Positions 41,762-51,285 of a stretch of 64,000 nt of DNA are shown piece by piece; positions within the stretch are counted from its first letter, which is position 1; every line of letters begins with the position of its first letter. Under the pieces are notes generated by a model. It did not search any database, was not told the origin of the DNA, and saw nothing but the letters and a program-made list of their open reading frames with translations. This DNA is from Octopus vulgaris. Taxonomy: Eukaryota. The translations under genes were made by a program, and so were the position numbers. The stretch spans positions 74,524,001-74,588,000 of the forward strand of contig OX597823.1 in the NCBI GenBank assembly GCA_951406725.2. The letters are read 5' to 3'.

Positions 41762-42077
41762 CTCTTTATTTATCTGTCTGTCTGTATACATATGTGTATC
41801 TCTCTCTCTCTCTCTATATATATATATAAAATAAAATAAAATAATAATAATAAATATATATATATATATTTAAAATTTATAAGTTTAAATTATTTAAATA
41901 ATTTTTTAAATTTTAACTTTAATTTAAATAGTTCAATTTGGAATTTTATATTTTTATATTTTATATTTTATATTTTTTTAATTCATTTTATTTCTATGTA
42001 TTGGCTTATGATTTTCACTGTTTGATTTGCCTAACAGTGGTTTTATTTCTAATTTAATATAAGATATATATATATAT

Positions 42078-42584
42078 AACGTAAAGTGTACTAGCCATCT
42101 GAATGTGGCTAGCCACTGGGGGTGGGGTGTTACTGATGCTTTTAGCCCCAGGCGATCAACGTCACCAGATGGACTTTAGACACTATCTCAGTGCCCTTGT
42201 GTTATATCTCGTTCAGAGATTTACTATTGCTTTCAGACAGTTTTTCTAAATCAGTGACAGTGGTTGCTGTGAAAAACATTATATATTATTTGCAAGGGGA
42301 CTCCTTCATCGAAGACCGGTGCTTACCATGCGTTGACATGAAGCAATTACCTTGAAACTATAGTCCGTATGTAGTACTTAGGTCTTCGAGGGAGGATGAC
42401 CTCCCTTTGCAAATAACACAAGGGCACTGAGATAGTGTCTAAAGTCCATCTGGTGACGTTGATCGCCTGGGGCTAAAAGCATCAGTAACACCCCACCCCC
42501 AGTGGCTAGCCACATTCAGATGGCTAGTACACTTTGCGTTGTCGAGCGGTTACTGTTTATATCTCGTTCAGAGATTTACTATTG

Positions 42585-42586
<2 letters not shown>
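42078..42586 (+). mobile_element. Retrozyme-like insert: 128-bp 5' inversion, 355-bp monomer and 30-bp terminal redundancy, in (TA)n
   Basis: 42078-42205 is the reverse complement of 42413-42540 (1 mismatch). ttatatctcgttcagagatttactattgct occurs at 42202 and 42557. (TA)n lies on both sides. Confidence 0.85.
42327..42371 (+). ncRNA. Hammerhead-like motif with non-canonical 5' core at the tip of a long rod
   Basis: CAUGCG-UUGACAUGA-AGcaauuacCUU-GAAA-CUAUAG-UC-CGUAUG. Stem I is extended by GUGCU/AGUAC, UCGAAGACC/GGUCUUCGA and UUAUUUGCAAGGGGA/UCCCUUUGCAAAUAA. Confidence 0.6.
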
Positions 42587-42624
<38 letters not shown>

Positions 42625-50953: not shown

Positions 50954-51001
<48 letters not shown>

Positions 51002-51038
51002 AAAAAAGGAGATGTCGAACACGAGTGGTGATATATAA

Positions 51039-51235
51039 AAAAGGAAATGAAGAAAATGCTGACAAATAATTGAAGTAATTTAAGTAATTTAATTAGGTGA
51101 AAGTTCTTTTTACCGGTTGCGCATTTGTTATGCTTATCAAAATAAGCATAACAAATGCGCAACCGGTAAAAAGAACTTTCACCTAATTAAATTACTTAAA
51201 TTACTTCAATTATTTGTCAGCATTTTCTTCATTTC

Positions 51236-51240
<5 letters not shown>
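51039..51240. repeat. Perfect palindrome: 99-bp arms, 4-nt spacer (CAAA), in (TA)n
   Basis: 51039-51137 is the reverse complement of 51142-51240. Confidence 0.95.

Positions 51241-51285
<45 letters not shown>

Follow-up and report, generated by a model that had tools for sequence, protein, structure and literature searches.

The described systems closest to the locus analysed here are the non-LTR retrozymes of metazoans and the Penelope-like elements (PLEs). Metazoan non-LTR retrozymes are tandem, non-coding units of about 350 bp (350–390 bp in mussel) with a GC content below 45%, which carry a type I hammerhead ribozyme with a short palindromic helix III, pair strongly with themselves and co-occur with PLEs (PMC7229834; bioRxiv 10.64898/2026.07.22.740005). 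RtcB ligates retrozyme monomers in vitro (PMC7229834). Non-LTR retrozymes are classed by Li et al. as non-autonomous PLEs, and eight of nine predicted Xenopus retrozymes were without cleavage according to the same preprint (bioRxiv 10.64898/2026.07.22.740005).

PLEs themselves leave partial tandems, an inverted 5' copy and a 30–40-bp tail that is often found at one end only, and their insertions are biased toward microsatellites (Craig et al. 2021, PMC8557442). The tail is bounded by two reverse-transcription start sites, and the PLE protein cuts and extends both target strands (Frangieh et al. 2024, PMC11167929). Note that hammerhead activity is not needed for PLE insertion in vitro (PMC11167929).

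The locus lies in a window of 64,000 nucleotides from Octopus vulgaris (contig OX597823.1, positions 74,524,001 to 74,588,000); all coordinates below without a contig name are those of the window. An earlier note, made from the letters of the window, had described at 42078–42586 a young insert with the layout of a type I hammerhead and had proposed either a new hammerhead core in a retrozyme-like family or a mutated copy. Here, we compare this insert with its relatives across the genome and with the PLEs that reside there.

A two-armed insertion of a 355-bp unit in a (TA)n microsatellite

The insert consists of two arms in head-to-head orientation. The inverted arm (42078–42205, minus strand) covers unit positions 212–339, and the sense arm (42202–42586, plus strand) measures 385 nt, that is, one unit plus 30 nt; the arms are joined through a 4-nt overlap, or microhomology, at 42202–42205. 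The inversion that had been claimed is real: the segments at 42078–42205 and 42413–42540 are each 128 nt long and differ by a single mismatch. The repeat unit, which belongs to a family that we call retrozyme family A, occupies 42202–42556 on the plus strand (its start point is arbitrary), and no coding ORF was found near it. The outer end of the inverted arm is what we refer to below as the 'short' fixed 3' end (S) and that of the sense arm as the 'tail' fixed 3' end (T); the 46-nt 'tail' that separates these two ends (42541–42586, plus strand) is present in one arm only. (TA)n target sequence flanks the insertion on the left (42064–42077) and on the right (42586–42622), and a target-site duplication (TSD) cannot be delimited within the microsatellite.

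The 30-nt terminal redundancy is likewise an exact direct repeat (42202–42231 and 42557–42586, 355 apart). It had been read as the result of copying slightly more than one round of a template, and although the repeat exists, a 30-nt redundancy is not a fixed feature of the family; it arises because the arm in the window happens to measure 385 nt and to end at the fixed tail end of the family. Arms longer than one unit are compatible with a circular and with a tandem linear template alike.

The compositional and structural claims hold as well. The unit has a GC content of 0.44, compared to 0.28–0.37 in the adjoining 1-kb bins, and the minimum-free-energy fold contains the named hairpins and the rod, here at 42286–42416 (plus strand), a predicted helix with the hammerhead at its tip and with pairs that covary over families A, B and C (see below). 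When compared to shuffled sequences, the fold of the window unit has a z-score of -5.5 for the plus strand and -3.9 for the minus strand; folded as circles, the window unit scores -5.6 and a family copy -7.3 (30 shuffles each).

Insertions of family A end at two fixed sites

Family A is dispersed over the genome, with at least 123 copies (123 matches came from the 40 places scored among 2668 candidates), and the segment that follows the predicted cut site has 413 exact-pattern copies. Tandem copies are common, with a spacing of 352–359 and up to three units, and are without ORF. Family A is a set of several hundred protein-free, young, dispersed and partly tandem repeats of which the window holds one copy, and the retrozyme-like reading of the earlier note is supported. 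The short (355-bp), non-coding unit in tandem or monomeric form is that of non-LTR retrozymes, whose units measure about 170–400 nt, as is the type I hammerhead in each unit, which is found at the level of the family, the copy in the window having lost G8 and A9. In its testable features, family A agrees with metazoan non-LTR retrozymes.

We mapped the ends of 101 distinct insertions (loci L001–L030, L032–L036 and L037–L102), excluding fragments shorter than 60 nt or lying at locus edges. Of 154 3' ends, 77 fall at unit positions 333–343 (the S site; 53 are at 339), 59 fall at positions 22–36 of the next unit (the T site) and 18 lie elsewhere, so that two fixed sites about 45 nt apart jointly account for 136 of 154 and delimit a tail of about 44–48 nt. 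The 5' ends of the 48 uninverted insertions are scattered over unit positions 12–355. Start points are thus not freely permuted around a circle, a possibility that had been raised for checking: only the 5' breaks scatter. Arms are head to head in 53 of the 101 insertions, and one S end is combined with one T end in 37 of the 41 inverted insertions that could be classed (binomial p 5e-8), or in 35 of 39 once two near-duplicate pairs are dropped. The insertion in the window is a typical S+T case. At the arm junctions (n=37) there is an overlap of 1–9 nt in 21, a flush join in six, a gap in nine and one long overlap. (At L338 and L342, inverted arms join at the stem III palindrome.) Among the 53 insertions outside (TA)5, 22 have a TSD of at least 8 nt, which is 12–14 nt long in 15 of these, and the other 48 insertions adjoin (TA)5. 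Moreover, both arms were recoverable in 18 of the 26 cases given, and in 15 of these 18 the arms of one insertion show greater similarity than do arms taken from different insertions.

Fixed 3' ends together with scattered 5' breaks indicate target-primed reverse transcription of the Penelope type. Several features of a non-autonomous PLE are found in family A: two fixed 3' ends around a tail, a tail on one of the insertion's ends, 5' truncation, partial tandems, inverted 5' copies, and AT-rich or microsatellite targets. In each of these respects, two reverse-transcription start sites around the tail included, family A resembles insertions of EN+ PLEs (PMC8557442, PMC11167929), from which it differs in having no ORF, a tail of about 44–48 nt rather than 30–40, and a unit that is structured RNA throughout. 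When compared to the metazoan retrozymes of PMC7229834 and the preprint of Li et al., the ends have here been mapped to two fixed sites with a rule for S/T pairing.

The inverted ends of the copy in the window, taken by themselves, and the tandem arrangement at some loci would also fit a satellite that recombination had dispersed, or else a MITE, a DNA transposon whose terminal inverted repeats would measure 128 bp. Both are, however, hardly credible, given that 48 of 101 insertions have no inversion, that arms range from 24 to 1098 nt instead of being fixed at 128, that the two outer ends correspond to different places within a single unit and that the 5' ends are truncated. The S/T pattern is a PLE 'tail' footprint, and hence that of a non-LTR retrozyme rather than a MITE; the combined reading of family A as a retrozyme with a PLE footprint is very probably correct. 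Twin priming of the L1 style, with the second primer at the break of the first arm, was considered and set aside, the 5' breaks not being clustered at the S site. Hammerhead matches 1.4, 1.6 and 3.6 kb apart, considered as autonomous elements, turned out to be duplications of host DNA.

Two further observations concern the family. Contigs from four runs guessed to be RNA cover the 355-bp unit; they carry no strand, end or circle information and were not counted. At L038 (G000:C1:94320500-94328500), a 1.38-kb tandem repeat of four units is built from a retrozyme copy lying inside an RTE-like LINE fragment.

A U3·G8 hammerhead core in family A and a private mutant in the window

The layout of a type I hammerhead is present in the window at 42327–42371 (plus strand), where cleavage is predicted for the family from sequence, alignment and pair counts. 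Stem I is formed by 42327–42332 and 42366–42371, the core lies at 42333–42339, stem II at 42340–42353 and GAAA at 42354–42357; a self-complementary stem III octamer (42357–42364) is followed by the predicted cut after 42365, the last base of GUC.

The 5' side of the core had been described as C3U plus two extra nucleotides. The first part is real and family-wide, whereas no insertion is seen when the window unit is aligned with the 36 other units that, together with it, make up the 37 distinct units from the 30 best loci. In its place we find three substitutions private to the window unit within 42338–42342, namely G8>A at 42338, A9>U at 42339 and a G>A in stem II at 42342; all 36 other units have G, A and G at these positions. 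When a 22-nt version of the core was used to search the genome (2.80 Gb, 227 contigs), the window type had one exact match, itself, and the family type 229. Furthermore, the modelled pairing probability of stem II is 0.00 in the window unit and 0.74–0.78 in a family copy. Since the three substitutions remove G8 and A9 and collapse the modelled stem II, the copy in the window is probably inactive.

The proposal that UUGACAUGA is a new, functional hammerhead core draws on the fact that G8>A would yield a U3·A8 pair, a covariation known to be active (PMC3088659, PMC4209133). That proposal is nevertheless very improbable: UUGACAUGA is found once in the genome, it arises by three substitutions and zero insertions, and in it A9 is gone and stem II collapsed. 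The other possibility that had been put forward, a mutated copy, describes the window unit, whose core is in all likelihood a dead, private mutant. (The three substitutions form a quasi-palindrome with the sequence just upstream, at 42320–42344, and may stem from one fold-back template-switch event.)

The consensus of the family is neither UUGACAUGA nor the canonical CUGANGA. The core of family A reads UUGACGA, with a U3·G8 wobble, and is followed by a stem II of 4 bp. Among patterns that are identical in all other respects, U3 is found in 288 copies across the genome and C3 in six; five of the C3 copies were examined and have other diagnostic changes in common, and more diverged copies of the family likewise have U3. 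Thus, family A lacks the canonical C3–G8 Watson-Crick pair and has the remaining hallmarks of the type I hammerhead: GAAA, A15.1–U16.1, an NUH site and stems I–III. Rfam hammerhead models gave no match for the window (E<=10) or for five family loci (E<=1); the hammerhead is read from layout and covariation.

Metazoan retrozymes have C3·G8 where family A has U3·G8 (PMC7229834; bioRxiv 10.64898/2026.07.22.740005). U3 is known from natural U3–A8 cores (PMC3088659), among them those of Schistosoma PLEs (PMC4209133), and in the present genome family C and PLE pLTRs have U3·A8. A variant from a saltern, U(2a)G(2b)U3...G8, combines U3 and G8 with an insertion that family A does not have (PMC7151607). 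In contrast to the core variants in these reports, U3·G8 is here the majority form of an animal family of multiple hundreds of copies, and C·G, U·G and U·A occur within one clade. The literature on natural C3U variants that we surveyed reports no family with a U3·G8 majority; Lunse et al. (2016), and also the PMC7229834 supplements with their many invertebrate cores, may bear on this point.

Pairing is kept through different sequences in sister families

Two sister families were found. Family B has a unit of 357 bp and the core CUGACGA, and family C has a unit of 361 bp, 246 pattern matches and the core UUGAUGA or UUGAUAA. S+T pairing is seen in 15 of 16 classed insertions of family C and in 11 of 11 insertions of family B, the latter count being biased in that the loci were chosen with a tail-bearing query.

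In 18 sequences of families A, B and C, 96.9% of the cells of the named structure are paired and 17 of its 45 pairs show double changes. Slid controls reach 30–56%, and none of 500 shuffles attains the paired share. (Note that these figures derive from three families, and so from few events, and that the structure was partly read from the same sequences.) The paired share is 99% in stem I, 99% in stem III and 86% in stem II, where 10.1–11.1 is G·U, U·U or C·A. The 3–8 pair is U·G in nine of the 18 sequences, C·G in five and U·A in four, one of which is the window unit, and is never broken. Similarly, the stem III palindrome differs among A, B and two variants of C and is self-complementary in each, a signature of double-hammerhead folding (PMC4209133, PMC6765202). 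Taking this together with the evidence given below, we think that the family hammerhead is probably active in vivo.

PLEs with predicted minimal hammerheads reside in the same genome

Among 150 places scored of 6136 candidates in a search for the GIY-YIG domain, many copies have intact open frames of 781 aa with RT and GIY-YIG domains. The ends of this 781-aa PLE family lie 40 nt apart (a tail of 40 nt), its targets are (TA)n, and both of its two inversions are of the S+T kind. Its pLTRs, like those of other PLE families, contain minimal hammerheads with a UUGAUAA core and a palindromic stem III. The young PLE of 4.7 kb (L159–L170, e.g. G000:C6:133343000-133350500) has a second long open frame, 479 codons when measured from one stop to the next, which lies upstream of the 781-aa RT/GIY-YIG frame and overlaps it.

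No long sequence shared with retrozymes A, B or C was found in the 42–44 PLE loci that came from the 150 places scored of 6136. The mobilising enzyme is consequently deduced from anatomy and is not named here. Xenopus retrozymes differ in this respect, Li et al. having described long pLTR homology to autonomous PLEs for 24 of 57 families (bioRxiv 10.64898/2026.07.22.740005). Several candidate links were rejected: the 781-aa PLE, PLE-2 and PLE-3 are without long homology to the retrozymes, the family B copies found close to two PLE loci were inserted separately, and the 17 nt that match the stop-codon region of PLE-2 are incidental. The links that were found are a short tail motif of the CTCGT type and the chimeras described below. 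The motif, CTCGT, is a candidate common element that stands 18–25 nt before the tail end in retrozymes A and B as well as in three autonomous PLE families (L004, L144, L162, L242, L230).

One further autonomous GIY-YIG PLE, PLE-4, carries its pLTR end behind the ORF at L119 and L125. The hammerhead predicted in its pLTR has GCAA for GAAA and a weak stem I. GCAA also replaces GAAA in some copies of another PLE family, with U3·A8 and the palindromic stem III kept (L217–L244, L207, L205). A long form of the PLE-4 pLTR (71 pattern matches; L119 at G000:C4:176464375-176467638, L297–L308) contains about 200 extra nucleotides starting from the predicted hammerhead cut triplet; this part is intron-like, with a GT start, a branch-like motif and a pyrimidine tract, and the common short form is not the GT-AG spliced product of the long one. 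Many copies of the PLE-4 pLTR have deletions of 1–8 nt just 5' of the predicted cut (L315–L337), which were selected for by the search, had no control and are not counted as evidence. The window itself contains the pLTR end of PLE-4 (family D), inserted head to head at 50983–51248.

Retrozyme sequence joined to PLE-4 at predicted cut sites

At two sampled loci, family A sequence stops at the GUC cut site and is followed by the same foreign sequence, which has S and T ends of its own. The foreign sequence is the 3' pLTR end of PLE-4 and starts with the base that follows the NUH triplet in the predicted minimal hammerhead of that element. When the genome was searched for cores of A or C with a purine after them, 22 matches were obtained, five of which are of the family A type, the rest being chance matches or variants of C. 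All five join the GUC to the first base of the PLE-4 pLTR after its predicted cut. These matches represent three chimeric loci, C1 (duplicated), C5 (both arms) and C15. Within the openly accessible literature on octopus hammerheads, on hammerhead/PLE chimeras and on ligation, no chimera at a hammerhead cut site is reported.

Because the hybrid is present in both arms at C5 and C15, the template itself was hybrid. The parent variants differ over the three loci: family A varies at a subfamily-linked C/T, and PLE-4 varies in a stretch of about 10 nt. The PLE-4 stretch agrees between arms in 27 of 27 inverted insertions, which argues that the variant is inherited and not made afresh; the different parent combinations at the three loci thus make independent origins of the chimeras likely, as judged from these variants. 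Moreover, the chimeras retain C17 of the retrozyme, which a template switch at the GT shared by both parents would not give. On the simplest reading, both RNAs would have been cleaved and then ligated; both cuts would likewise be required for a template jump from end to end. On the evidence of these junctions we lean, by a small margin, toward regarding the chimeras as cut-and-join fossils of both ribozymes.

A precedent for such joining is provided by the U6/LINE-1 chimeras made by RtcB, in which an RNA with a 2',3'-cyclic phosphate is ligated to the 5'-OH of a retroelement RNA before retrotransposition of the product (Moldovan et al. 2019, PMC6789731). The octopus case differs in that both ends would be made by hammerheads and the mobiliser would be a PLE, ligation being suggested here by three genomic loci.

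Several results of the genome searches have to be set beside this reading. The reciprocal chimera has no match in the genome, and no chimeras of families B or C with the same kind of join at GUC were found. The GCAA and the weak stem I of the PLE-4 hammerhead also weigh against it. In family A, the cut site shows no excess of 5' ends (6 versus 413, three of the six being point changes). All five chimeric arms stop near unit positions 108–117, which also fits a single master, and one PLE-4 copy (L321) has an A-to-C point change at position 17.

These last observations bear on an alternative in which family A is a non-autonomous PLE copied from tandem linear transcripts, with a vestigial or near-silent U3·G8 hammerhead, no circle, and chimeras that go back to one template switch later copied. 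The absence of 5'-end enrichment, the common stopping place of the chimeric arms, the GT common to both parents just before the junction and the existence of the needed A-to-C change as a point mutation in a PLE-4 copy all speak for it, as do in vitro results in which hammerhead mutants were without effect on PLE insertion (PMC11167929). It leaves unexplained, however, why four variants of differing sequence all preserve the 3–8 pair and the palindrome of stem III, why the chimeras keep the retrozyme C17, which is not expected from a switch at the shared GT, and why three loci show three different parent combinations. We consider this alternative unlikely and favour hammerheads that cleave.

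Discussion

It is quite probable, in our view, that the window holds a head-to-head, two-armed insertion into (TA)n of a non-coding repeat of 355 bp whose 3' ends are fixed at two sites, an insertion that a PLE RT/GIY-YIG protein likely made, and that the predicted type I hammerhead of the family, with its U3·G8 pair, likely cuts in vivo, the copy in the window being likely inactive. The copy and its classification as a retrozyme are themselves ordinary.

The following course of events would account for the observations. Tandem copies would be transcribed, and the hammerheads of neighbouring units would pair via the palindromic stem III; cutting after GUC would then yield RNA of unit length, perhaps circularised. 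As suggested by the 12–14-nt TSDs and the (TA)n flanks, a PLE protein would cut AT-rich DNA in a staggered fashion. At the DNA level, priming is seen from the tail end on one strand of the target and from about 45 nt upstream on the other, presumably in the hands of the same enzyme; the RNAs copied share a lineage and frequently exceed one unit in length. The DNA likewise shows that the 5' positions at which the two cDNAs are united are scattered, and that the union is made via overlaps of 0–9 nt. Finally, a cut end of the RNA would sometimes become linked to that of a PLE RNA, and retrotransposition of the resulting hybrid would follow, as at the three chimeric loci. Tentatively, and at somewhat less than even confidence, we extend this to the proposal that retrozyme hammerheads (U3·G8) and PLE hammerheads (U3·A8, GCAA) both cut in the germline and that their products are ligated to each other and retrotransposed, such that swapping hammerhead halves puts a PLE module for the start of reverse transcription on a new RNA and may found new retrozyme families.

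These results bear on the question of whether PLE-associated hammerheads cleave in vivo. In vivo evidence is absent from Cervera & de la Pena 2014, and the data described by Frangieh et al. (2024) include no reads ending at the hammerhead site (PMC11167929). The rule of S/T pairing predicts a different reverse-transcription start site for each target strand. The C·G, U·G and U·A series at position 3–8 within one clade is a natural test set for the tolerance of the double-hammerhead core, and descriptors built on CUGANGA miss families such as A. Chimeras that run from cut site to cut site can be tallied in any assembly rich in PLEs and so serve as a genomic read-out; if our reading of them is true, the genome keeps nucleotide-exact fossils of PLE-ribozyme cleavage in vivo.
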